Both the position numbers and the translations under genes were made by a program. The notes under the pieces are model-generated. The model saw only the letters and a list, made by a program, of their open reading frames with translations. It was not told where the DNA came from and did not search any database. A stretch of DNA of 64,000 nucleotides from Elusimicrobiales bacterium (GTDB taxonomy: Bacteria; Elusimicrobiota; Elusimicrobia; Elusimicrobiales; UBA9959): contig JBBRDG010000004.1 of assembly GCA_038204165.1 (NCBI GenBank), positions 4,330 to 68,329 of the forward strand, written 5' to 3'. This document shows positions 4,240 through 56,248 of this stretch, in pieces (position 1 is the stretch's first letter; the number at the start of each line of letters is the position of its first letter).

Positions 4240-5394
4240 ATGGGCGCCTATCCTGACAAGAAAAAAATATTAAAAGAGATACTTAAAAAATTACACGGCG
4301 GCCTGGCGCTGGAGGAAGCGAAGCGGCTCTTTGAAACTGAAATAGGCCAAGTTACTTCCAACGAGATCTTTGAACTGGAACAGTCCCTGCTGGCCGACGG
4401 CGTGCCGGCGGAAGAAATAAAAAAATTCTGCAACGTGCACGCGCTGCTGTTCGCGGGCGGTCTGGAGAAGGCCATGGAGGACCCCGCGTCAACTTCGCAT
4501 CCGGTATCCCTTTTCAAGGCTGAGAACGCAGAGATTAAGCGCCGCGTAGACGCCGCCTTGGCCCTACTGCCCTCGCTGAAAGCGGGAAAAAGCGCGGACT
4601 GGGTAAAGAACCTGCTGGAAGAACTGCGGGCGGTAAACATTCACTATGAGCGCAAGGAGCAGTTGCTTTTTCCATATCTGGAAAAAGTAGGCTTTACCGG
4701 GCCTTCAAAAGTGATGTGGGGCAAGCATAACGAAATCCGCGAAATGTTAAAAAAAGCCAGTAGCGCCGCCCCGGTGGAATTCCCGGCGGCGGCGCAGGCC
4801 CTGCTGGAAGAAATAGACGGCATGATCTTCAAAGAAGAGAATATTCTCTTTCCGGCGGCCCTTGAAAAATTAAAACCCGGGGATTGGGCCGGGATCTTTC
4901 GCGACAGCGCGCAAGCCGGCTATATCTTTATCGAACCTCCGGCTGCGGTTGCCGAAGCCCTGGATATAGCCCAAAACACGGCCGCCCTTTCCGGCGCCGT
5001 AGTTTCGCTGCCCAGCGGGAATCTTAACCTTACCGAACTTACCTCCCTGCTAAACACCCTGCCCGTCGACCTTACCTTTGTGGATGCGGAAGACACCGTG
5101 CGCTACTTCTCCGAGGGCAAAGACAGGTTCTTTCTGCGGGCCCGCGCCATTATAGGCCGCAAGGTGCAGAACTGCCACCCGCCGCAAAGCCTGGGGGCCG
5201 TGGAAAAAATTCTTGCCGCCTTCAAAGACGGTTCCAAAAGCACAGAAGAATTCTGGATAAATCTGAAAGGCCGAACCGTCCACATCCGCTACTTCGCCCT
5301 GCGCGGCCCGGACGGCAAGTATCTGGGTTCCCTGGAAGTAACGCAGGACATAACGGACATACAGAAAATAAAAGGCGAAAAAAGGCTGGCATAA
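4240..5394 (+). CDS. DUF438 / hemerythrin-like / PAS-domain protein
   Basis: 384 aa. The N-terminus (ILKKLHGG...EAKRLFE...EQSLLADGVP) is DUF438-like. The middle has H/E-rich hemerythrin-like helices (HYERKEQLLFPYLE...WGKHNEIREML). The C-terminus has a PAS-like fold (LTFVDAEDTVRYFSEG...CHPP). Confidence 0.65.
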   Translation: MGAYPDKKKILKEILKKLHGGLALEEAKRLFETEIGQVTSNEIFELEQSLLADGVPAEEIKKFCNVHALLFAGGLEKAMEDPASTSHPVSLFKAENAEIKRRVDAALALLPSLKAGKSADWVKNLLEELRAVNIHYERKEQLLFPYLEKVGFTGPSKVMWGKHNEIREMLKKASSAAPVEFPAAAQALLEEIDGMIFKEENILFPAALEKLKPGDWAGIFRDSAQAGYIFIEPPAAVAEALDIAQNTAALSGAVVSLPSGNLNLTELTSLLNTLPVDLTFVDAEDTVRYFSEGKDRFFLRARAIIGRKVQNCHPPQSLGAVEKILAAFKDGSKSTEEFWINLKGRTVHIRYFALRGPDGKYLGSLEVTQDITDIQKIKGEKRLA

Positions 5395-8835: not shown

Positions 8836-10197
8836 TCAGCGGCGCTTTTTATTCACCAGGTCGTCTACCTTCTGGATGACCCGCAGGGCCAGGCCGGCCG
8901 CGCTTCTGGATTGAGTGGCGTAGGTGGCGTCCTTCATATGGTCCAGTTCCTTGCCAAGCTCCACCTGGATTGAATCGGTTTTTCTGATGGAAAGCACCTG
9001 TGACGGGTAGACGCTTTTGTGCCCGGTCATCAGAAAACTTATAACGCAGGCGACGGTGGCGTAAGGCGCAACCACCGGCCCGAAAAGCTCCACGGCCATA
9101 ATGCTGGCCGCTATGGGCGTATTGGCGGCCCCTGCCAGCACGGCCACAAAACCAATGGCGGCGAACGTACCGGAATCCAGATGCATAACCTGGGCGTACA
9201 GGCTGCCCACGGACGTGCCGATAAAGAATATGGGAGTAATTATCCCGCCGCTGCCGCCAAAACTCAGGGTGATGGAAGTAAAAACGGATTTAAGGAAGAA
9301 GTCGTACCAGGCCGCCGGCGCGCCCCCCAACATAGCTTCAATAGGTCCCAGACCGAGGCCCAGGTATTTTTTCGAGAACACCAGCGCCAGCAGAACGAGC
9401 GCCGTGCCGCCGAGCAGGCCTTTAAGAGGACTCCAGATCTTTATGCGTTCCGAAACCTTTTCCCCGTATTTCAGCAACTCGATCAGGAGCAGCGAAGCCA
9501 GGCCGAAGAATATCCCGGCGAACATAACCTTTAGCATAAATGTTTCGGAGAATATCGGCACAAAATTTATGGGCTTGTAGAAATAAGAGATGCCCATGGC
9601 GGACGACACCTGGTAGGCGGTTATCCCCGCGATGAACGAAGGCAGCAGGACTTCGTAAAGGATAGCGCCCACAAAAAGCACTTCCACACCAAAGATGGCC
9701 CCTGCTATGGGCGTGCCGAAGACGGCCGCGAAGCCTGCGCTTATGCCGCAGATCACAAGCTTTTTCCGATCGTGCTCGTTAAACCTGAAAAAATCGCTCA
9801 AAGCGGAAGTAAGTCCGGCGCCTATCTGGGCGCAGGGCCCTTCCTTTCCCGCCGAACCCCCCAAGGCAAGGGTTACCACAGTGGCGACAAGCTTTACCGG
9901 AACCACCGCGAGAGGAATTCTGGCGGCGTTCTTATGAACCGCCTCAATAACTTTTTCAGTGCCGTGCCCCTTGGCGTCGGGCGCAAGATACTTAACCAGC
10001 AGGGCGCTAACGAACAGCGCCACCGGAAGGAAAAGATACGAATATTCCCAGGTATTGGCGGCCACAGTAGAAATATTTAAGAGTTTAAGAAAAAGCGTGG
10101 TGGCAAAGCCGACTACGGCCCCGGCCACAGTGGCCAGAAATACCCATTTAACGATGCTTATGAACAGTAAGGTAGATTCAGTGATGTGTGTCTTCAT
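8836..10197 (-). CDS. ClC-family voltage-gated chloride channel/antiporter
   Basis: GSAGKEGP, GTPIAGAIFGVE and GGIITP selectivity-filter-type motifs. ATG at 10197 has an upstream AGGGA RBS and is preferred over the track start at 10248. Confidence 0.85.
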   Translation of the reverse strand: MKTHITESTLLFISIVKWVFLATVAGAVVGFATTLFLKLLNISTVAANTWEYSYLFLPVALFVSALLVKYLAPDAKGHGTEKVIEAVHKNAARIPLAVVPVKLVATVVTLALGGSAGKEGPCAQIGAGLTSALSDFFRFNEHDRKKLVICGISAGFAAVFGTPIAGAIFGVEVLFVGAILYEVLLPSFIAGITAYQVSSAMGISYFYKPINFVPIFSETFMLKVMFAGIFFGLASLLLIELLKYGEKVSERIKIWSPLKGLLGGTALVLLALVFSKKYLGLGLGPIEAMLGGAPAAWYDFFLKSVFTSITLSFGGSGGIITPIFFIGTSVGSLYAQVMHLDSGTFAAIGFVAVLAGAANTPIAASIMAVELFGPVVAPYATVACVISFLMTGHKSVYPSQVLSIRKTDSIQVELGKELDHMKDATYATQSRSAAGLALRVIQKVDDLVNKKRR

Positions 10198-10248
10198 TTT
10201 TATATCCCTGTTTTCATTATATGAAAGAGAGCCCGTTAAAGCCATCAA

Positions 10249-10319: not shown

Positions 10320-10580
10320 ATGAAACTTTCCATAAAAGCCATGGCAATATCCGGAGGCCTGCTTTGGGGCGGAGCTATTTTAATGGTAGCGCTGGCTAAC
10401 TCGGTCTGGCCGGGTTACGGCCGGGCATTCCTAGAGGTTCTTGCTTCCATCTACCCAGGCTTCCCTGCCGGCGGCGGGATCCTGAGTATTCTTGCCGATA
10501 CCGTTTACGGACTTTCGGACGGCGCCGTAGCCGGTACTTTGCTGGCCTGGCTCTATAACCTGGCGGCGCCGAACGCTTAA
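10320..10580 (+). CDS. small Gly-rich membrane protein, unknown function
   Basis: 86 aa with 2-3 predicted TM segments, a strong RBS (aagggggaaac) and its own promoter-like element. No family recognised. Confidence 0.45.
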   Translation: MKLSIKAMAISGGLLWGGAILMVALANSVWPGYGRAFLEVLASIYPGFPAGGGILSILADTVYGLSDGAVAGTLLAWLYNLAAPNA

Positions 10581-10649
10581 CGCGGCTAATTAAGAGCCGT
10601 GGTCCGCGCACAAAAACGCCATCGCTACGGCTTTCTGAATTGTGTTATT

Positions 10650-12068
10650 CTATTCCTCGGCCGGTTTTTCCGGCCCATTGCTTTCAAAGGAAACAGGGAT
10701 AATAAAACTTATCTCGGTCCCCTTACCGGTTTCCGACTGCACGTCGAGCATGGCGGCATGGCGGTCAGCCACCATTTTACAAAACGCCAGGCCGAGCCCG
10801 ATGTTCTTATAGCTTTTCCCCATAGTGCTGTACTTCCTGAAGATCTCCTCGCGAAAATTCTCCGGGATGCCCTCGCCCTCATCGCTTACATAAATGGCGG
10901 CTTTCCCGTTTTCCCTTATCCTTGCCCCGAGCTTAATCGCCCCTCCGGCCGGAGTGTACTGTATGGCGTTAAGCACAAGGTTGCCTATCACCCGCTTGAT
11001 AAGATCATGGTCGCCGAACAGCCAGGCGCCCTTTATTTCCGGAGCTAGCGCTAGTGCCCACCTCTTGCCGGCGGCACGGACAGAAGCCGCGTTTTCTCCG
11101 GCACATTCGCGCAGGAAATCTTCCAGCACCAAACGCTCCTTTTCCGGCTGATAGTCAGCGTTATTTAGCTTAGCGGTATTAAGAACATCGCCAATCATGG
11201 TCACAAGCATGCCTAACGACGTGCGCGCGATCTGCGCCAGATTGCGAAGTTGCTCTTTACTGAACGTTTTAGATTCCTCCTCGGAAAGCAGCAGGTCCAG
11301 CGAGGCCTTAAGCGCGGTAACCGGCTGTTTCAGATCATGCACGGTCATAGAGAAAAAGTCGTCCTTCTGAGTCTCGGCATTCCCGCGCCGTGTTTCTTCT
11401 TCCTTAAGACGGCTATGAAGGCCGGCAAGCGTTTGCGCTATTTTCCAGGTTTCCGTTCCATGGCTGAACGCGTCCTCCGCCGGAAGTGTATCAGCATTCA
11501 CGTTTTCAGCCAGTTCATTAAGAGCGCTCAGCTCCCGGCCCAGGCGTAAAGTAAGCAGCCATACGACCAGCATTATAACCGCGATGAAAATCAGGCTGAT
11601 GGCTATCCCTCGCCACATCAGGTTTTCAGTGATTTCACTTATTCCCGTCACTGAAACGCCCATTTCCATGTAACCATAACGGCTGCCGTTGCGGACAATG
11701 TCGCTTCGGGTATCGAAGACTTTATCCGTAACATCAAAAATATCTTTGTCGGCCGTTCTATTCTCTATACTTATACCGGGCTCTGCCCGCCTGTACAGCA
11801 CGTGGCCGCGCGTGTCAGAAACCCGGAGATAAGCGATCTGTTTAAAATTCTCGAAGTTTTTCAGTTTTTCCTTCAAGCGGACGGTCTCTCCTTTCTCCAG
11901 AGCCTCGCCGGCCATGTCCGTCAGAAAAGCGGTTATGTAATCTACCCGGTCCTGAGTGCGGCCCAGCAGCGCCTCCCTGGAACTTTGCACCCTGTCAAAA
12001 ATAATTACGGCGGAAAACACAAAAACCAAAACAGTTGTAAATAATATAAATTTAGTCCGCAGTTTCAT
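10650..12068 (-). CDS. sensor histidine kinase (TM - periplasmic domain - TM - HisKA - HATPase_c)
   Basis: H-box FFSMTVHDLKQP, N/G boxes (LNAIQYTP, DEGEGIP, GLGLAFC), and two TM helices flanking about 140 aa. Overlaps otsB by 17 nt. Confidence 0.85.
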   Translation of the reverse strand: MKLRTKFILFTTVLVFVFSAVIIFDRVQSSREALLGRTQDRVDYITAFLTDMAGEALEKGETVRLKEKLKNFENFKQIAYLRVSDTRGHVLYRRAEPGISIENRTADKDIFDVTDKVFDTRSDIVRNGSRYGYMEMGVSVTGISEITENLMWRGIAISLIFIAVIMLVVWLLTLRLGRELSALNELAENVNADTLPAEDAFSHGTETWKIAQTLAGLHSRLKEEETRRGNAETQKDDFFSMTVHDLKQPVTALKASLDLLLSEEESKTFSKEQLRNLAQIARTSLGMLVTMIGDVLNTAKLNNADYQPEKERLVLEDFLRECAGENAASVRAAGKRWALALAPEIKGAWLFGDHDLIKRVIGNLVLNAIQYTPAGGAIKLGARIRENGKAAIYVSDEGEGIPENFREEIFRKYSTMGKSYKNIGLGLAFCKMVADRHAAMLDVQSETGKGTEISFIIPVSFESNGPEKPAEE

Positions 12069-12843
12069 GTTTCCTCCTGCTGGCGATAATAAACCTGAGA
12101 AATTTTAGCACTTCAGACTGACTAGCAAGAAAATACCCGGCTTTTGAACCGGTACTGCGGCCAACCCGGACTGTTACTCCGCCCGAAACAAGCGCCTTGA
12201 ACATATCCTCGTCGGTAAGATCGTCCCCTACCGCCACGGCGAAAGCTCTCCCCAACCGTTTACGCAGCAATTCCAGAGCCCGGCCTTTATGGGTGGCGCC
12301 ACGCGTAACGAGTTCAAATACTTTGTGGCCGCCGCGCCAGTATAGATTCCCGCTTTGCGCATTGCCAAGAACTTTCATTCTGGCGAAAAAACCATGTTTA
12401 TAGGCCGGTTTAATATTCCTATAGTGCACGCTGGCTGAAAACACTTTGTTTTCCACCAACACCCCGGTTCCGGCGGGGAATCTTTCCTGGATGTCAGCAA
12501 CAATGCCTGGGATCAGGCCGCGAACTTTGGCCGCTGCCGCGTCGCGCCAGGCGAAACCCGGCCCCTCTATTTCCATACCGTGGTTTCCCCCGTAATAGAG
12601 GTTTTTTAAACCGACCAGCCGGCGCACGCTTTGCAGCGCCCGGCCGCTGAGGATAAAAACAGAAACCCCGGGCAGGGCAGCCAGGTCTTTAAGGGCTGCC
12701 TTGAACTCAGGCTTCAGCCGCGCCTGCCCGGGGGTTTCCGCCAGGGCCGCAAGCGTGCCGTCGAAGTCCAGGGTAACAAGCAGGTCCGGCGAGGCGGCCA
12801 GCCGCGCAGAGACAACTGCGGTGTTCTTCCAGAGAGACTTCAT
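12052..12843 (-). CDS. otsB: trehalose-6-phosphate phosphatase
   Basis: HAD motif I LDFDGTLA, motif IV GDDLTDEDMF. Immediately downstream of otsA (1-nt gap). Confidence 0.85.
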   Translation of the reverse strand: MKSLWKNTAVVSARLAASPDLLVTLDFDGTLAALAETPGQARLKPEFKAALKDLAALPGVSVFILSGRALQSVRRLVGLKNLYYGGNHGMEIEGPGFAWRDAAAAKVRGLIPGIVADIQERFPAGTGVLVENKVFSASVHYRNIKPAYKHGFFARMKVLGNAQSGNLYWRGGHKVFELVTRGATHKGRALELLRKRLGRAFAVAVGDDLTDEDMFKALVSGGVTVRVGRSTGSKAGYFLASQSEVLKFLRFIIASRRKHETAD

Positions 12844-12844
12844 C

Positions 12845-15100
12845 TTAAACCCCGGTAGACTTAAAATTACCCATGCGCAGCTTCATCAGTTCCTCTATCA
12901 GATTAGCCGCCCATTTATAGATATTATTTTCGTGCAGGTCCTGGCGCATGCGCGTCATCCGCTCTGTAACTTCCGTTTTAGGCATGGTGAGCGAATAGAA
13001 GATGGCGTCGGCCATCTGCTCGATATCGTACGGATTTACGATAAGCGCGTCCTTCATCTCGCGCGAAGCCCCGGCGAAACGACTCAGGATCAGCACGCCG
13101 CCCAGGTCCTCGCGCGCGGCCACAAATTCCTTAGCCACCAGGTTCATCCCGTCGTGCAGCGAGGTTACCAGGCAGGTATCGGCAATCTTAAAGAACTTAT
13201 TAATTGTTTTATGGTCATGATGTTTATCCAGGAAAACTATGGCCTTCCAATCCTTGGCCTTAAACCTCCAGTTTATCCGGTCTACCTCTGCATGCAGTTC
13301 CGCCAGGAACCGGTGGTACTGCGGGATATGCGTGCGGCTGGGGGCACCGATCTGGATAAGCGTGAATTTCTTCACGTATTCCGGATACTTTTCTAGAAAA
13401 CGCTCCACGGCCTTAACCCTTTCCAGCATGCCTTTGGTGTAGTCTATGCGGTCCACGCCCACGCCGACAAATTCGGCCTTGATGCCGAGTTCTTTGAGCA
13501 GCACCGCGGGGTCCGGTTTTAGAGCCGGGGCATTGCCTTCCGGGTCCGGGTGGGAAAAGTCAACGCTGATAGGAAAAGGCTTCACCGCGGTTATATGACC
13601 TTCCTTCTGCGCGGTGAAATGCTCCCAGTCTATGCGGGATTCTATCGTCCGGTCCACGGTCTCCAGGAAGTTGTTGCAGTAGAATTGAGTCTGGAAACCT
13701 ATCAGGTCCGCACCCAGGAGGCCCATAACCAGTTCCTTCTGCCACGGGCAAATGCCGAACGCTTCCGAATTCGGCCACGGGATATGCCAGAACACCGCCA
13801 CGCGCGCGTCGGGCCGCGCGGCTTTTATCAGGCCCGGCAGCAGGGTAAAATGATAGTCCTGTATCAGCACGCAGGGCTCTTTCACGTCGGCTATCTCTTC
13901 CAGCACCGTGTCCGCGAATTTCCTGTTAACTTCCTGATAATACTGCCAGTCCTCTTTTCTGAAGACCGGGCGAACGTGGGCTATGTGGCACAGCGGCCAG
14001 ATGCCCTCGTTGGAAAAGCCGTAATAGTAGCCGTCTTCCTCTTCCTTGGTAAGGGGAATGCGGCGCAGCGTGTAGGCCGGCTCTTCCGGCGGCACTTTAA
14101 TGCGGTTATGCGCATCCGTCACCTCGAAGTCGGCCTCGCCGCTGCCATGCGCCACCCAGGTGCCGCCGGCCGCTCTAAGGATAGGGTCCAGCGCCGTCAC
14201 AAGACCTCCGGCGGGGACTATAGTGAGGATCTCCTTGCCCTCTTTAATGTGCATATACGGCTCGCGGTTGGACACCACGAAAAGCGGCCGGCCGTCCATC
14301 TTCATTTTTATCTGTTCTTTCAAACGTTCCGGGGTCCAGAGGGATTCGCCTTTTTGACGTAGCCTGGCCTCGTTCTGCGCGGATTTTCTTGCCGCATGCA
14401 GATTTTTCGTGAGTGTGTTCACCTCAAAAGCGATCGGCGCAAAGATGTCCCCTTTTAACGGCGAAACTTGCTCGGAGGCCTCGCCGTTCCGGAGTTTTTT
14501 CATCCATTCCGCCATCTGCGTGAGCGGAGCGAGGACGTGCCACCGGACGACCAGGAGCGTGACAAGCGAGATCAGCAGCATCTGGACGAGCACCCGCAGC
14601 AGCGTCCGGATCCAGATCCGGAACAAGTCGTAGTCTATGTAGGAAACGTCTGTAAACAGGACTATCTTCGCCCGCTCCCCCCCGTTAACTTCAAAGGAAA
14701 CAGGGAACAGGAACATTTTCTTGTTGTTTATCGTATTCACCCTGCCGGAACCGTCCAGGCCCTTCAGCACTTCCTCTATCACTTTGGGGCTGGCGACCAG
14801 GGCCGAATCCAAGGAAGAAGAGCGGGTAATCAATTTGCCCTCCGGGTCATAGATGGCTATCCCGGTCAGCTGCTTCTGGTACTGGAATTTGTCCGCCATC
14901 TTCTGCAGCCCAGCGCGGTTTTTGGATTCGAGATTGCTCCGGGCTGATTCAATGAAGCTTTCCGCCAGCAGGGCGGAGCGCGACTGCACCTCTTCGTAAA
15001 GCTTTAGTTTTTCATGCCTTGCGTTGAACCAGGCCGAAACAATGGAGACAAAAACAACCACCACTATGAGCGAGACTATTAGTCTGACAGTTATACGCAT
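12845..15100 (-). CDS. otsA: trehalose-6-phosphate synthase (GT20) with an N-terminal TM - periplasmic - TM - HAMP sensor module
   Basis: The C-terminal ~480 aa carry GT20 hallmarks (VVSNREPY, GGLVTAL, FWHIPWP, GVDRIDYTKG, SLHDGMNLVAKE). The N-terminal ~270 aa have two TM helices and a HAMP-like linker. Confidence 0.85.
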   Translation of the reverse strand: MRITVRLIVSLIVVVVFVSIVSAWFNARHEKLKLYEEVQSRSALLAESFIESARSNLESKNRAGLQKMADKFQYQKQLTGIAIYDPEGKLITRSSSLDSALVASPKVIEEVLKGLDGSGRVNTINNKKMFLFPVSFEVNGGERAKIVLFTDVSYIDYDLFRIWIRTLLRVLVQMLLISLVTLLVVRWHVLAPLTQMAEWMKKLRNGEASEQVSPLKGDIFAPIAFEVNTLTKNLHAARKSAQNEARLRQKGESLWTPERLKEQIKMKMDGRPLFVVSNREPYMHIKEGKEILTIVPAGGLVTALDPILRAAGGTWVAHGSGEADFEVTDAHNRIKVPPEEPAYTLRRIPLTKEEEDGYYYGFSNEGIWPLCHIAHVRPVFRKEDWQYYQEVNRKFADTVLEEIADVKEPCVLIQDYHFTLLPGLIKAARPDARVAVFWHIPWPNSEAFGICPWQKELVMGLLGADLIGFQTQFYCNNFLETVDRTIESRIDWEHFTAQKEGHITAVKPFPISVDFSHPDPEGNAPALKPDPAVLLKELGIKAEFVGVGVDRIDYTKGMLERVKAVERFLEKYPEYVKKFTLIQIGAPSRTHIPQYHRFLAELHAEVDRINWRFKAKDWKAIVFLDKHHDHKTINKFFKIADTCLVTSLHDGMNLVAKEFVAAREDLGGVLILSRFAGASREMKDALIVNPYDIEQMADAIFYSLTMPKTEVTERMTRMRQDLHENNIYKWAANLIEELMKLRMGNFKSTGV

Positions 15101-15113
15101 AAGAGCTCCTTCG

Positions 15114-16160
15114 TTAATGAATGGCCGTAAGAGCCAGGAAGTAAATCAGCAGCAGCGCCAAGCCGGCGGGGATAGCCGTCTTTGCCCATTCCCGGCTTTT
15201 TATGCCGAGTTTGGAGGCGCATACTATGTTAGGGATATTCCCCGGGATCAGAACGCCGCCGGAAATGAGCAGACTGATAGTGAAGGAAAGTATCTGTTCC
15301 CTGCTCATATACGGAGTTATTCCCGCCGCCGCCAGCGTGGCGTTATCGAGAGCCGCGGAGCTAAGCCCCAGCCAATAAAGCTGCCAGCTGTTAAGCGCCG
15401 GAATCACCCGGCCGGCGATAGGGCTTAAGCCCTCGCCCAGGAATACCAGCGCCGCCACGAACACATAAACCTTGGCTGCCCGGAACAGTATAGTCCGGGT
15501 GCTATCCTCCCCTTCAGCTGTGTCCTTCCTGGAAACTGAGTCCCTGCCCAGCGGCCGCCAGTAGGCCGCCGCCGCTGCCACGGCGATTATGGCGGGAACT
15601 ACCCACAGCAGCAACAGCCGGGACAACCAGAAGAAGCCGGCATAGTGCGGAGCACCGGACAGCCTGGCCGTCACGATAGTTGAAAGCGGCTCGCCCAGGG
15701 GAGTCAGCGCCGCGCCGAGCCCGATAGCGAAACAGGCATAAACCACGGCCCGTATTTGCGATTGTTGGTCCAGGCGGAGATGCTGAATTATCTCGCAAAG
15801 AATTAGCGCGGCGATTATAGCTGTAATAAGGCTGGACAGGAAAGCTAGCGCGATAATAAGCGCAAAGAGAGCGTGCTTTATCCCGATTACGCGCTCAAGC
15901 CGCTCGATAAAACCTTCGACATACTTTTTGCCTGCCTTAAATAAAAAACCCGCGGCTAATACGGCCGCCGAGATCTTGATCGGGTCGACCAGCGACGCCT
16001 CTACCACATGCCAGCTCCACAAATTTGACACGGTCAGGGCGGCGCAGCCCATGAGCAGCAGAAAAAACTCCAGCTCTTCTTCAACCCGCTTGATAGAAAA
16101 CGGCAGCAACAGTACCAGCGCCATTATAAGCGCCAGACCTGGAATAGCCAAATATGACAT
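15114..16160 (-). CDS. polytopic membrane protein, DUF1646-like putative cation transporter
   Basis: 348 aa, about 10 TM helices. The N-terminal LPFSIKRVEEELEFFLLLMG resembles DUF1646 family members as I recall them. Not verified by search. Confidence 0.5.
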   Translation of the reverse strand: MSYLAIPGLALIMALVLLLPFSIKRVEEELEFFLLLMGCAALTVSNLWSWHVVEASLVDPIKISAAVLAAGFLFKAGKKYVEGFIERLERVIGIKHALFALIIALAFLSSLITAIIAALILCEIIQHLRLDQQSQIRAVVYACFAIGLGAALTPLGEPLSTIVTARLSGAPHYAGFFWLSRLLLLWVVPAIIAVAAAAAYWRPLGRDSVSRKDTAEGEDSTRTILFRAAKVYVFVAALVFLGEGLSPIAGRVIPALNSWQLYWLGLSSAALDNATLAAAGITPYMSREQILSFTISLLISGGVLIPGNIPNIVCASKLGIKSREWAKTAIPAGLALLLIYFLALTAIH

Positions 16161-16300
16161 TATGTCCCCTTTCCTGGACCGGTAGCGTTAAGCGTTGCGC
16201 GTATAAAAGAAATAGCCGCCTCCGGTAGTGTATACCTGAATGGCGGCCCGACCATTCCCATCCTTCGGAGGCTGAACTCCGAACCCTTATAAAGTTATTT
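16161..16300 (-). promoter_or_regulatory. structured 5' leader with competing hairpin, anti-terminator and intrinsic-terminator folds (candidate riboswitch or attenuator)
   Basis: On the minus strand there is a UUCGGAG-UUCAGC-CUCCGAA hairpin (~16264-16283). It is followed by a GGCCGCC-21 nt-GGCGGCU stem and AUUUCUUUUAU (~16203-16248). GCCUCCG of hairpin 1 is perfectly complementary to CGGAGGC, which overlaps the terminator 3' arm by 3 nt. Confidence 0.45.
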
Positions 16301-16375
16301 TACCGCATAAAGACAACGGCTGTCCACCTTATCAAGCCAAGGCGCGGGCGCCAACAAAACAAGCGGTTAAAGAAG

Positions 16376-16406
16376 CGGGCCGGATCTCTTTTTAAGACCC
16401 GGCCCG
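16376..16406 (-). terminator. possible terminator hairpin after argF
   Basis: CGGGCCGG / CCGGCCCG 8-bp stem with a 15-nt loop, followed on the minus strand by CUUCUUUAA. The U-tract is weak and the loop is large. Confidence 0.3.
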
Positions 16407-36464: not shown

Positions 36465-36548
36465 GGTTGGGTGACTGAGCGGTCAAAAGTAACGGTCTGT
36501 AAAACCGTCGGGCTACGCCCTACGAAGGTTCGAATCCTTCCCCAACCA
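36465..36548 (+). tRNA. tRNA-Tyr (anticodon GTA), class II with a long variable arm
   Basis: Acceptor GGTTGGG/CCCAACC, anticodon stem-loop ACGGT-CTGTAAA-ACCGT, T-loop GGTTCGAATCC. CCA is not encoded. Confidence 0.85.
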
Positions 36549-36571: not shown

Positions 36572-36655
36572 GCGCGGGTGGCGGAACTGGCAGACGCGCA
36601 CGGCTCAGGACCGTGTGACCGAAAGGTCTTATGGGTTCAACTCCCTTCCCGCGCA
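36572..36655 (+). tRNA. tRNA-Leu (anticodon CAG)
   Basis: Acceptor GCGCGGG/CCCGCGC, anticodon stem-loop CACGG-CTCAGGA-CCGTG, long variable arm, T-loop GGGTTCAACTCCC. Confidence 0.85.
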
Positions 36656-38547: not shown

Positions 38548-38637
38548 TGGCGGAGAGGAAGGGATTCGAACCCTTGATACCCTTTCGAGTATACAGACTT
38601 TCCAGGTCTGCGCCTTCAACCGCTCGGCCACCTCTCC
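38548..38637 (-). tRNA. tRNA-Ser (anticodon GGA), CCA encoded
   Basis: On the minus strand: GGAGAGG acceptor, D-arm GCCGAGCGGTTGAAGGC, anticodon stem-loop CAGAC-CTGGAAA-GTCTG, long variable arm, T-loop GGTTCGAATCC, ...CTCTCCGCCA. Confidence 0.85.
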
Positions 38638-54119: not shown

Positions 54120-56248
54120 GCTTCCACCTTCCTTATAACCTTGCCGGACAGGTCCTTGTCTAAATCCTTCGGCACCGAGAAAATGAACTTGGCGCCGGAG
54201 CCGGGCTCCGATTCCGCCCAGATCTTCCCGAGGTGGGCATTGGCCACGTACTTACAAATGGTGAGCCCCAGGCCGGTGCCGCCGGCTTTCTGACCTTTTA
54301 CCTGTTCAAACTTCTCAAAAACTTTATTCAGGTATTCCGGCGGGATACCGTCGCCGGTGTCGCGCACCCAGGCTACTATGTTTTCGCCGTCGTCGCGCAT
54401 GCCGGCGGTGATAACGCCGTTATCGGGCGTGAATTTTATGGCGTTGCCGATAAGGTTGGTGAACATGCGCTCCATCAGGCCGGAGTCCGCCTCCACGATC
54501 AGCTGTTCGGGGCCTTCGATCTCGAATTTAATATGTTTGCGCTGGCCCAGCGACTCCATGAGCTCTATGACCCGGGCCGCCACCTCGCGAAGATTGGTCG
54601 GGGCCAGCTTTATCTCCATCTTGCCGGCTTCCATCTTGGCCACGTCGAGGATATTGTTGATCATGCCGAGCAGGCGGAAAGAAGCGCGGTCGATGGAGAT
54701 CAGCATCTTCTTCTGCGCCTCGTTCACGGGGCCGGGGATTTCCTTGATCATGAACTCCACGAAACCTTTGATGGCGCCCATCGGGTTGCGTAAGTCGTGC
54801 GTGATAGAATGCAGGAACTCGTCTTTGATGCGGGCCAGTTCCTTATCCAGCGTTATGTCGTAAAAGCCCAGCAGCCTGCCCATGGGGGCGTCCTTGCCCG
54901 GCGCGATGATCGGAATGACGAAGCACTTGAAGAAGCGGCGGGAATGTTCCTGCGCCACTTCTATTTCCGCGTAATGGTTCTCCTTGCGGCTGGTGAGCAC
55001 TTCACCGACGGCGTCGTGCACCGGGCCCGGGGCGATCAGCTCCAGGATGCCGCGGCCCTCCACCGGCGCGGTGGCGGCCAGGCCTAGCACGGACCTGGCC
55101 TTGCGGTTGGCCAGCTGCGCCTTGTCAGCCATATCAATCATCACAATCCCGTCTTCAGTAGAGAAAAGGATGGCTTCAGTGTTCTTCTGCTCGCGGATGA
55201 TCTTGTCCACCTGCATGTCGGAATAGGTCTTGAGCTGCAAGACCATCTTGTTGAAAGTTTCGGCCAGGTCGCGCAGTTCGTCAGTGGTGTCAACTTCGGC
55301 CCGCCTGGAGAAGTCCCCGGCGGCCACGAATTCGGCAGCTCTGGTAAGCACGGTTATAGGTTTTGAAAGGCTGCGGCTCAGCACCCACGCGGCAAGCACG
55401 GCCAACGCGAGGAAAAGCAGCACGGCATAAACGGCCTGGCGCTTCATGAAAAGGGCGTAGCGGTACGCGCCCTCCTGCGGCTGGCTTACCACCACGGCAC
55501 CGCCCAGTTCCGGGATTGGCGCGTAGGCGCCCAGCATCTGCCGGCCCGCTTCGTCGGTGAACTCGGCCGAACCGGAGGAAAGGGATTTAACCGCGTCGCG
55601 GGAAAGACGCCAGCCCGCCGCGGCGGTTGCGGCCTCAGCCGGCAGGTCGCCGGGCCAGGCGATGGGCGCCCCGGAGGCGTCCAGGATGAGCGGAAAACCC
55701 TGTTCCCCTACCCTTTTAAGATCCAGGGAATCAATGAAGGAACCCAGGTCCAGTTCCGCCCGCAGGGCCATGTCCTTGCCGAAAGGGTAATAAAATACAG
55801 CGAGACGGGACTTGGCGTCTACCGCCAGGCTTCGCCTGCCGGCTCGGGCAATCTTTAAACCCAGAATAGCGGAGTAATTCTTGAGAGCTTCATTCTTCCC
55901 GCCAAAAGGAGTGATGATTTTGACCAGTTCGGACCCGTCGCGCGCGACAACGGAAATCTGCTTCAGTTCCCTGCGGGTCTCGAGCAGGGTGGCGAGCAGG
56001 ATCTGCTTGTTCTCCCAGTCCATGCGCTCCATAGCGGTCAGCACGGTGCGGAGCGAAACGTCGGCGCTGCGGATATAGCCGTTGAAGTCGGAGGCGATCT
56101 TGTCCGCGGCGGTGAGGTGGAGTTCCAGGATAGCGGTGCGGACGCCGAGCTGCCCCAGGCTTATCAGGCGCCAGCCCAACAGCGCCATAGGCAGTACGGA
56201 AACCAGTACCAGTACCGCCACGAATTTATGGATAAGCCGGAGTTTCAT
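54116..56248 (-). CDS. sensor histidine kinase (Cache-like periplasmic domain, HAMP, PAS, HisKA, HATPase_c)
   Basis: 710 aa. H-box FLHSITHDLRNP, N box NLIGNAIKFTP, G boxes DTGDGIP / GTGLGLTIC. 4-nt overlap with the LysM gene. Confidence 0.88.
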   Translation of the reverse strand: MKLRLIHKFVAVLVLVSVLPMALLGWRLISLGQLGVRTAILELHLTAADKIASDFNGYIRSADVSLRTVLTAMERMDWENKQILLATLLETRRELKQISVVARDGSELVKIITPFGGKNEALKNYSAILGLKIARAGRRSLAVDAKSRLAVFYYPFGKDMALRAELDLGSFIDSLDLKRVGEQGFPLILDASGAPIAWPGDLPAEAATAAAGWRLSRDAVKSLSSGSAEFTDEAGRQMLGAYAPIPELGGAVVVSQPQEGAYRYALFMKRQAVYAVLLFLALAVLAAWVLSRSLSKPITVLTRAAEFVAAGDFSRRAEVDTTDELRDLAETFNKMVLQLKTYSDMQVDKIIREQKNTEAILFSTEDGIVMIDMADKAQLANRKARSVLGLAATAPVEGRGILELIAPGPVHDAVGEVLTSRKENHYAEIEVAQEHSRRFFKCFVIPIIAPGKDAPMGRLLGFYDITLDKELARIKDEFLHSITHDLRNPMGAIKGFVEFMIKEIPGPVNEAQKKMLISIDRASFRLLGMINNILDVAKMEAGKMEIKLAPTNLREVAARVIELMESLGQRKHIKFEIEGPEQLIVEADSGLMERMFTNLIGNAIKFTPDNGVITAGMRDDGENIVAWVRDTGDGIPPEYLNKVFEKFEQVKGQKAGGTGLGLTICKYVANAHLGKIWAESEPGSGAKFIFSVPKDLDKDLSGKVIRKVEA

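Follow-up and report, generated by a model that had tools for sequence, protein, structure and literature searches.

What controls a compact gene cluster for cation transport and trehalose synthesis in a bacterium of the Elusimicrobiales, and to which signal does that control respond? The question is raised by a 64-kb window of contig JBBRDG010000004.1 (assembly GCA_038204165.1), the window being the whole stretch of DNA that was analyzed; the related sequences compared with it carry labels of the form L001. On the minus strand of the window, four co-oriented open reading frames (ORFs; 15114-16160, 12845-15100, 12052-12843, and 10650-12068) encode, in this order, a DUF1646 family membrane protein, a sensor-fused trehalose-6-phosphate synthase (OtsA), a trehalose-6-phosphate phosphatase (OtsB), and a membrane sensor histidine kinase, and a leader of ~130 nucleotides (nt) lies ahead of the DUF1646 gene. 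Every feature that can be tested in sequence assigns the leader RNA to the nhaA-I family, and it is very likely that an nhaA-I-class transcriptional ON riboswitch heads the operon.

Class and structure of the leader RNA

When the full window was scanned with Rfam 15, a single cis-regulatory match was obtained, the 49-nt nhaA-I aptamer (RF03057, the Li+-I/Na+-II family) at 16238-16286 of the minus strand, which scored 41.4 bits against a gathering threshold of 37 bits (E = 8e-5 for the whole 64-kb window). The aptamer, with the sequence GGGUUCGGAGUUCAGCCUCCGAAGGAUGGGAAUGGUCGGGCCGCCAUUC, ends 78 nt short of the start codon of DUF1646 and is downstream of a predicted promoter. Its two helices, P1 and P2, span 16265-16282 and 16238-16257, respectively, and the hallmarks of the family are present: a 5' GGGU, an AGG linker, and a P2 loop CGGGCC closed by GGU/GCC, the whole of P2 reading GAAUGGU-CGGGCC-GCCAUUC. 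A covariance model of our own (R1), built from ten nhaA-I RNAs at related loci, gave the window aptamer 66.5 bits.

The preliminary description of this DNA had suggested instead that the leader was a DUF1646-motif (Na+-I) riboswitch, an identity in whose favor stand the downstream gene, which is DUF1646, and the two-hairpin architecture common to both RNA classes. In a permissive Rfam scan (E ≤ 10) of the 381-nt leader region, nhaA-I was the only match on the aptamer and no DUF1646-motif match was found; the DUF1646 model has to be read as being without a positive control, since no Na+-I RNA was detected by Rfam at 17 other DUF1646 loci. Three other weak matches from the same scan (mir-3926 on both strands and Atu_Ti1) all lay over the terminator of the upstream argF gene. 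The nucleotides that mark Na+-I RNAs in published constructs (GGUUGA, UCAAGA, and the loop GGGUGG) are absent from the window leader. On the basis of the missing match and the differing signature nucleotides, the Na+-I identity was rejected, and we regard it as extremely improbable.

The same RNA was present in relatives. A search with R1 recovered 17 aptamers in 86 sources, and three additional loci gave four more matches, of which one re-finds a known copy, for 20 distinct aptamers; Rfam itself assigned nhaA-I scores of 45-50 bits to RNAs that precede the DUF1646 orthologs of L001 and L003 (twice in L003). In the alignment of the 17 RNAs, 95.8% of the cells were paired compared with 34-56% when the partners were slid, and compensatory changes occurred in 10 of the 14 base pairs, with all seven P1 pairs covarying; these pairing and covariation counts lean somewhat toward the structure, as the alignment was fitted to the R1 model. 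Unpaired nucleotides were strictly conserved. Because the Rfam score exceeds the cut-off and relatives have this RNA at the equivalent site, with covariation, the match in the window goes beyond chance. A divergent form, in an Omnitrophota metagenome-assembled genome (MAG; L031, 5473-5532), starts with GUGGUC rather than GGGU, has a strong terminator, and precedes a gene for an OmpA-like lipoprotein followed by DUF1646.

A sigma-70-type promoter (TGGACA-18 nt-TAAAAT; 16297-16326, minus strand; score 10/12) is predicted upstream of the aptamer by consensus match and conservation. It would place the transcript start 2-4 nt before the aptamer, just upstream of GGGU, and in L001, both copies of L003, and L005 this -35/-10 pair recurs with identical spacing to GGGU. 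An intrinsic terminator (16203-16248, minus strand) consists of a 5' arm (16233-16248), a 3' arm (16214-16227), and a U-rich tract (16203-16213) of the sequence AUUUCUUUUAU. The 5' arm contains the P2 loop and the P2 3' arm, 11 nt being common to the terminator and P2, so that the aptamer and the terminator are mutually exclusive; the preliminary description had correctly noted terminator and anti-terminator alternatives in this leader. In the minimum-free-energy fold of the leader (-31.2 kcal/mol), P1 was kept and P2 was replaced by the long terminator hairpin, compared with -24.8 kcal/mol when the aptamer was enforced. An equivalent terminator (GCCGCC...GGCGG with a U-tract) was seen in ~15 of the 20 related leaders; a few leaders (L022 and L049) differ in having a ribosome-binding site beside the aptamer instead of a terminator. 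This folding model predicts a cation-triggered ON switch that operates via anti-termination.

Genes of the operon and their arrangement in relatives

The four gene products were assigned by profile searches, in agreement with the preliminary description. The 348-residue product of 15114-16160, a predicted cation transporter, matched the Pfam DUF1646 family (PF07854) with E = 6e-100 and 335 bits (cut-off, 21.4) over 342 of the 347 profile positions, and it also showed a weak CitMHS match; among its 5947 homologs, the closest ones with a source name (60-79% identity) were all from Elusimicrobia MAGs. In the 751-residue OtsA (12845-15100), residues 274-738 matched Pfam Glyco_transf_20 (GT20) with E = 3e-115 and 386 bits, far over the cut-off. 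The NCBIfam OtsA models TIGR02400 (434 bits versus an equivalog cut-off of 565) and PRK14501 (480 versus 634) were both matched under their cut-offs, and the glucosylglycerol-phosphate synthase model gave 292 bits, lower than the OtsA models (434-480). The trehalose assignment of this GT20 protein is supported by the adjoining OtsB (12052-12843, 263 residues; Pfam Trehalose_PPase, E = 7e-33), which passes the equivalog cut-off of NCBIfam TIGR00685 (122.7 versus 68.05 bits). The 472-residue kinase (10650-12068) carries both HisKA and HATPase_c domains by Pfam. No cognate response regulator for it adjoins the operon within the window.

The genes of the unit are packed exactly as previously described. 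The junctions are tight or overlapping and have Shine-Dalgarno sequences. The transporter and otsA are separated by TAA, the 13-nt segment CGAAGGAGCTCTT (which includes GGAG), and ATG; otsA and otsB meet at TAA-G-ATG, a 1-nt gap; and otsB and the kinase gene share a 17-nt overlap, ATGAAACTGCGGACTAA, with AGGAGG ahead of it. The 5' boundary of the unit is set by the strong terminator of argF (16376-16406, minus strand; a 13-bp stem with 9 GC pairs, then CTTCTTT), the ornithine carbamoyltransferase identity of that upstream gene being given by Pfam OTCace and OTCace_N. At the other end, a weak terminator-like hairpin (10618-10631, minus strand; GCCGTAGCGATGGC followed by GTTTTTGTG), found by consensus match only and situated 19 nt past the kinase stop codon, probably marks where the operon ends.

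The closest relatives of the locus are Elusimicrobia MAGs, and the aptamer-bearing relatives span several phyla. In L001, the first copy of L003, L005, L006, and L084-L086, the aptamer is followed by DUF1646, sensor-OtsA, OtsB, DUF5752, and TreT. A kinase is included in three other relatives: L088, the second copy of L003, has DUF1646, sensor-OtsA, OtsB, kinase, DUF5752, TreT, and SSF; L090 has DUF1646, sensor-OtsA, OtsB, a response regulator, kinase, DUF5752, and TreT; and L089 has Na_Ca_ex, sensor-OtsA, OtsB, and kinase. The order in L087 is DUF1646, Na_Ca_ex, and a 626-residue protein without a Pfam record, and sensor-OtsA comes immediately after the aptamer in L022, L041, L049, and L054. 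The kinases of L088, L089, and L090 are orthologs of that in the window (55-59% identity) at the same operon position, their named sources being Elusimicrobia MAGs, and the response regulator ahead of the L090 kinase is a single-domain protein. An origin in Deltaproteobacteria, which the literature on terminator variants had led us to expect, finds no support in these homologs, as all named close ones of the transporter and the kinase come from Elusimicrobia MAGs. The impression gained from L001-L006 and L084-L086, that the kinase is an addition confined to the window, was rejected on the basis of these same-position orthologs. This synteny indicates that the four-gene arrangement of the window, including the kinase, is a design that recurs and does not stem from an accident in one contig.

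These data also bear on two ways in which the leader might not govern the unit: it could be a constitutive or protein-dependent attenuator with a fortuitous likeness to nhaA-I, or a riboswitch for DUF1646 only, with the other genes separately transcribed. The Rfam score just 4 bits over the gathering threshold and the weak promoter-like sites inside the operon are what such explanations can draw on. They are opposed by the scores of the relatives (45-50 bits in Rfam), the covariation that backs both helices together with the strictly conserved unpaired nucleotides, the junctions (13-nt gap, 1-nt gap, and 17-nt overlap), which leave no space for promoters, and the placement of the aptamer directly ahead of sensor-OtsA in L022, L041, L049, and L054. 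We consider both explanations, taken together, very unlikely.

Several features of individual relatives were recorded. The Elusimicrobiales MAG L089 contains two nhaA-I aptamers, at 15112-15159 (minus strand) and 4822-4870 (plus strand); one precedes the operon in which Na_Ca_ex takes the place of DUF1646 (Na_Ca_ex, sensor-OtsA, OtsB, and kinase), and the second lies ahead of an operon for ABC-type sugar uptake (SBP_bac_1, two BPD_transp_1, and ABC_tran). Genes for a mechanosensitive channel and for an amino-acid permease bearing a Usp domain are found in their surroundings. In a genome of the RIFOXYA12_FULL_51_18 type (L003, 7800-17047; L088, 1-12314), the riboswitch, DUF1646, sensor-OtsA, OtsB, and following genes are tandemly duplicated, and the kinase is present in the second copy only, as in the window. 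Most relatives have a conserved ORF of ~50 codons between the riboswitch terminator and DUF1646 (L002, 7812-7991; L084, 7827-7988; L085, 7829-7981; L086, 361-516; L087, 3541-3708; and L003, ~14990-15160) that encodes a single-transmembrane peptide (...NTxKTPGT...IEYLxWWGF...ILKYIF...). This ORF is absent from the shorter leader of the window and from L005 and L006, and only a remnant is seen in the first copy of L003.

The genes around the operon in the window (CLC channel, CbiMNQO, AcrB, SOD, and NrfA) are unrelated to it. The CLC-type chloride channel gene (8836-10248, minus strand) is directly downstream on the same strand. Between it and the operon, on the opposite strand, an ORF for an 86-residue membrane protein (10320-10580, plus strand) has a sub-threshold match to the phage holin family NF037947 (53 bits versus a cut-off of 70). 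A second histidine-kinase core is encoded at 54152-54826 (minus strand) and shares 29% identity with the core of the operon kinase (tblastn E = 1e-24). Three tRNA genes with long variable arms, unrelated to the operon, were located by Rfam at 36465-36548 (plus strand), 36572-36655 (plus strand), and 38551-38637 (minus strand).

Proposed mechanism and candidate cation

We propose that transcription starts a few nt upstream of GGGU and that, without ligand, the 3' half of P2 would pair with the downstream segment GGAGGCGGC to form the terminator, which with its U-rich tract would stop transcription ahead of the first gene. With a rising cytoplasmic level of a small alkali cation, the bound aptamer would keep P2 closed, the terminator would be blocked, and RNA polymerase would then read into the four-gene operon. 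The DUF1646 transporter would extrude the ion, the sensor-fused OtsA and OtsB would provide the compatible solute trehalose, and the sensor histidine kinase would initiate downstream signaling. The full model, comprising an nhaA-I ON switch by anti-termination, Na+ as the likeliest ligand, and a four-gene operon, is in our judgment probable. The earlier proposal that a single RNA element gates the whole unit thus survives in part: a riboswitch most likely does so, and its class is nhaA-I and not DUF1646.

The identity of the cation is a question already posed for RNAs of this type. The nhaA-I RNAs are for the most part Li+-I riboswitches (White et al. 2022, PMC9646797), and rare terminator-bearing variants, which were reported from Deltaproteobacteria only, are responsive to Na+ and received the name Na+-II (PMC9646797); for the nhaA-I RNAs associated with otsA, the same authors left Li+ and Na+ both open (PMC9646797). 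Replacement of C54 in the Desulfobulbus propionicus RNA with the common U broadened its response to Li+, Na+, and NH4+ (PMC9646797). The C54U mutant of this Na+-II RNA keeps its Na+ response (PMC9646797), which we counted in favor of Na+ in the window. From the published construct sequences, position 54 was located as the base that ends the 5' arm of P2. The base of P1 (GGGUCC...GGAGG; as a type, GGGU(C/U)C...G(G/A)AGG) resembles that of the Na+-II representative and is unlike that of three Li+-I constructs (GGGUGC...GCAGG). One relative, L041 (528-586), has the Na+-II-type C (GAUGGC-CGGGCC-GCCAUC), the only such case; its aptamer is followed by sensor-OtsA, an unidentified gene, OtsB, DUF5752, TreT, and DUF1646, the transporter being last and not first. 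Among the relatives the regulon comprises OtsAB and TreT, the Na+-type transporters DUF1646, Na_Ca_ex, and SSF, and ABC sugar uptake. On the basis of the terminator platform, the P1 base, the osmotic-stress regulon, and the C variant of L041, Na+ and osmotic stress are favored, and with moderate confidence we take Na+ to be the physiological ligand, possibly with a cross-response to Li+.

Several observations weigh against the full model. The specificity position, the only one defined by experiment, is U (16251, paired with G 16244), which is the Li+-I state and not the Na+-II C, and U occupies it in 19 of the 20 relatives, with C in L041 only. A canonical Li+-I-like aptamer (GGGUG...CAGG) stands ahead of sensor-OtsA in the Phycisphaerae MAG L049. 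The linker of the window RNA is AGGA compared with the family consensus AGGU, and the U-tract of the terminator (AUUUCUUUUAU) is interrupted. Within the operon there are a weak promoter-like match in otsB (12339-12368, minus strand) and weak terminator-like matches in DUF1646 (15952-15968, minus strand) and otsB (12137-12152, minus strand), all at frequencies expected by chance in the scan; such internal sites could allow some expression of the kinase that is independent of the riboswitch.

The first of these observations could be accommodated by a genuine Li+-I riboswitch, with Li+ as the ligand, DUF1646 as a Li+ exporter, and trehalose offsetting Li+ toxicity. Such a system agrees with the specificity-position U and with the fit to the RF03057 consensus, which was built mostly from Li+-I RNAs, and White et al. 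raised this possibility for otsA-associated RNAs (PMC9646797). The regulon (OtsAB, TreT, SSF, ABC sugar uptake, and Na_Ca_ex), however, has a composition typical of osmotic stress, White et al. describe terminator platforms for the Na+-responsive variants and not for Li+-I RNAs (PMC9646797), the P1 base is like that of the Na+-II representative, and the C-variant relative L041 governs the same genes. A Li+-I riboswitch is thus unlikely here, and we retain Na+ as the preferred ligand. In sequence terms, the window RNA fits neither Li+-I nor Na+-II cleanly, as it has the terminator of Na+-II RNAs and lacks their C54. The question of White et al., Li+ or Na+ for the otsA-associated nhaA-I RNAs, becomes testable with this 49-nt aptamer and its clean terminator, and the natural U and C variants ahead of the same gene set make a direct comparison possible.

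Sensor domain of OtsA and relation to known systems

The N-terminal module of OtsA, composed of a transmembrane (TM) segment, an extracytoplasmic PDC-PAS domain, a second TM segment, and a HAMP-like linker, is encoded at 14306-15100, and the GT20 domain is encoded at 12845-14305. The fusion to a sensor, already noted in the preliminary description, was borne out by an NCBIfam match of residues 5-246 to the WalK N-terminus (E = 3e-8) and by structure. In the AlphaFold model of OtsA (predicted local distance difference test score of 78), a transmembrane helix is followed by a helical stalk, a five-stranded alpha/beta domain, a long second membrane helix, and a helical linker. The best Foldseek matches to this model were WalK structures (9a5d_A, E = 3.6e-7 over 265 columns; 4ywz, TM-score 0.69), and further matches were the extracytoplasmic PDC/PAS domains of WalK, CitA, and DcuS. 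A word-indexed search with the N-terminal module returned only 9 fragments, and an exhaustive HMMER search was needed, which yielded 696 representative proteins, with E ≤ 1e-10 for 290. When ten long matches to the module were checked, nine had a GT20 match (eight significant) and the tenth had no Pfam match. From these matches the sensor module appears to be dedicated to OtsA, and the sensor-OtsA family, as delimited by the search, is a large one that comprises 290 or more clusters at the 50% identity level.

The external domain of OtsA was also compared with that of the co-operonic kinase. Direct BLAST of the two N-termini was marginal (E = 0.059), and homology surfaced at the profile level only: the OtsA N-terminal alignment matched the kinase family with 96.8% probability (E = 2.8e-10, 232 columns), and when only the extracytoplasmic segments were used (OtsA 31-104 and kinase 31-104) the probability was 95.4% (E = 1.9e-8) versus 0.2% for a reversed control. 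The second TM segment and linker of the two proteins matched no better than the reversed-sequence control. These profile comparisons suggest that OtsA and the kinase probably share a homologous external sensor domain that is wired to different outputs.

Tentatively, and with more doubt than belief, we offer the proposal that the operon senses salt in several layers. A cytoplasmic alkali-cation riboswitch may license transcription, the PDC sensor-OtsA may be a transmembrane receptor-enzyme gated by an external or membrane signal, and the kinase, with its homologous sensor domain, may relay the same signal. As part of the same proposal, the U-type terminator-coupled aptamers, mostly from Elusimicrobia MAGs, could represent a further specificity variant of nhaA-I. 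No description of a membrane-sensor-fused trehalose-6-phosphate synthase was found in the open-access literature. If such receptor-fused enzymes are what they seem, they would be a possible new osmosensing route that acts directly on compatible-solute synthesis.

The core of the system is of a type already described, and the combination, of which the preliminary description knew no account, is to that extent not new: otsA (16 cases) and DUF1646 (4 cases) are tabulated as first genes after nhaA-I RNAs (PMC9646797, Supplementary Table I), and trehalose, osmotic stress, and the Na+-sensing terminator-bearing variants are discussed by White et al. (PMC9646797), so that the osmotic-stress reading had been suggested as well. 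Weinberg et al. (2017) had reported rare associations of nhaA-I with DUF1646 and signaling genes. What is new is the apparent host range of nhaA-I in Elusimicrobia, the combination of a U-type aptamer with a terminator, the full composition of the operon including the conserved kinase, and, probably, the sensor domain common to OtsA and the kinase. A link between nhaA-I and Elusimicrobia was not found in the open-access literature, and White et al. name proteobacterial classes alone for the motif. The locus and its relatives place the nhaA-I class, especially its terminator-coupled form, in Elusimicrobia-like MAGs, with Omnitrophota and Phycisphaerae MAGs also among the relatives.

Among known RNAs, the Na+-II riboswitch upstream of a 'hypo' gene in D. 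propionicus (PMC9646797) shares with the window RNA the two-hairpin fold, the 5' GGGU, the AGG linker, the CGGGCC loop, and the P1 base of the type GGGU(C/U)C...G(G/A)AGG. In both RNAs an intrinsic terminator uses the P2 3' arm, which implies the same logic of ON by anti-termination, and the D. propionicus variant activates transcription with Na+ in vitro (PMC9646797); neither RNA is associated with nhaA. The two differ in the closing pair of P2 (U-G in the window versus C-G, with C54, in D. propionicus), in their hosts (Elusimicrobia versus the exclusively deltaproteobacterial published variants), and in their downstream genes, which are identifiable in the window (DUF1646, OtsA, OtsB, and kinase) and 'hypothetical' in D. 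propionicus. With Li+-I, the canonical nhaA-I RNA (RF03057), the window RNA has in common a score above the gathering threshold, the U at the specificity position, and a location upstream of a cation transporter, and otsA and DUF1646 are among the rarer genes associated with Li+-I. Unlike Li+-I, it has a terminator and precedes an osmoprotection operon, and its P1 begins with a U-A pair (C-G in relatives) instead of G-C. The Na+-I (DUF1646 motif) riboswitch is similar in its DUF1646 gene family, its two-hairpin architecture, and the ON output expected for sodium/osmotic-stress genes; the conserved nucleotides differ, the covariance model gave no match, and the window RNA is not a member of that class. 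On the protein side, the OtsA N-terminus is built like the PDC sensor modules of the WalK/CitA type, with TM, PDC, TM, and HAMP-like helix and with WalK as the best structural match, whereas the output to which it is joined is a GT20 trehalose-6-phosphate synthase and not a kinase.

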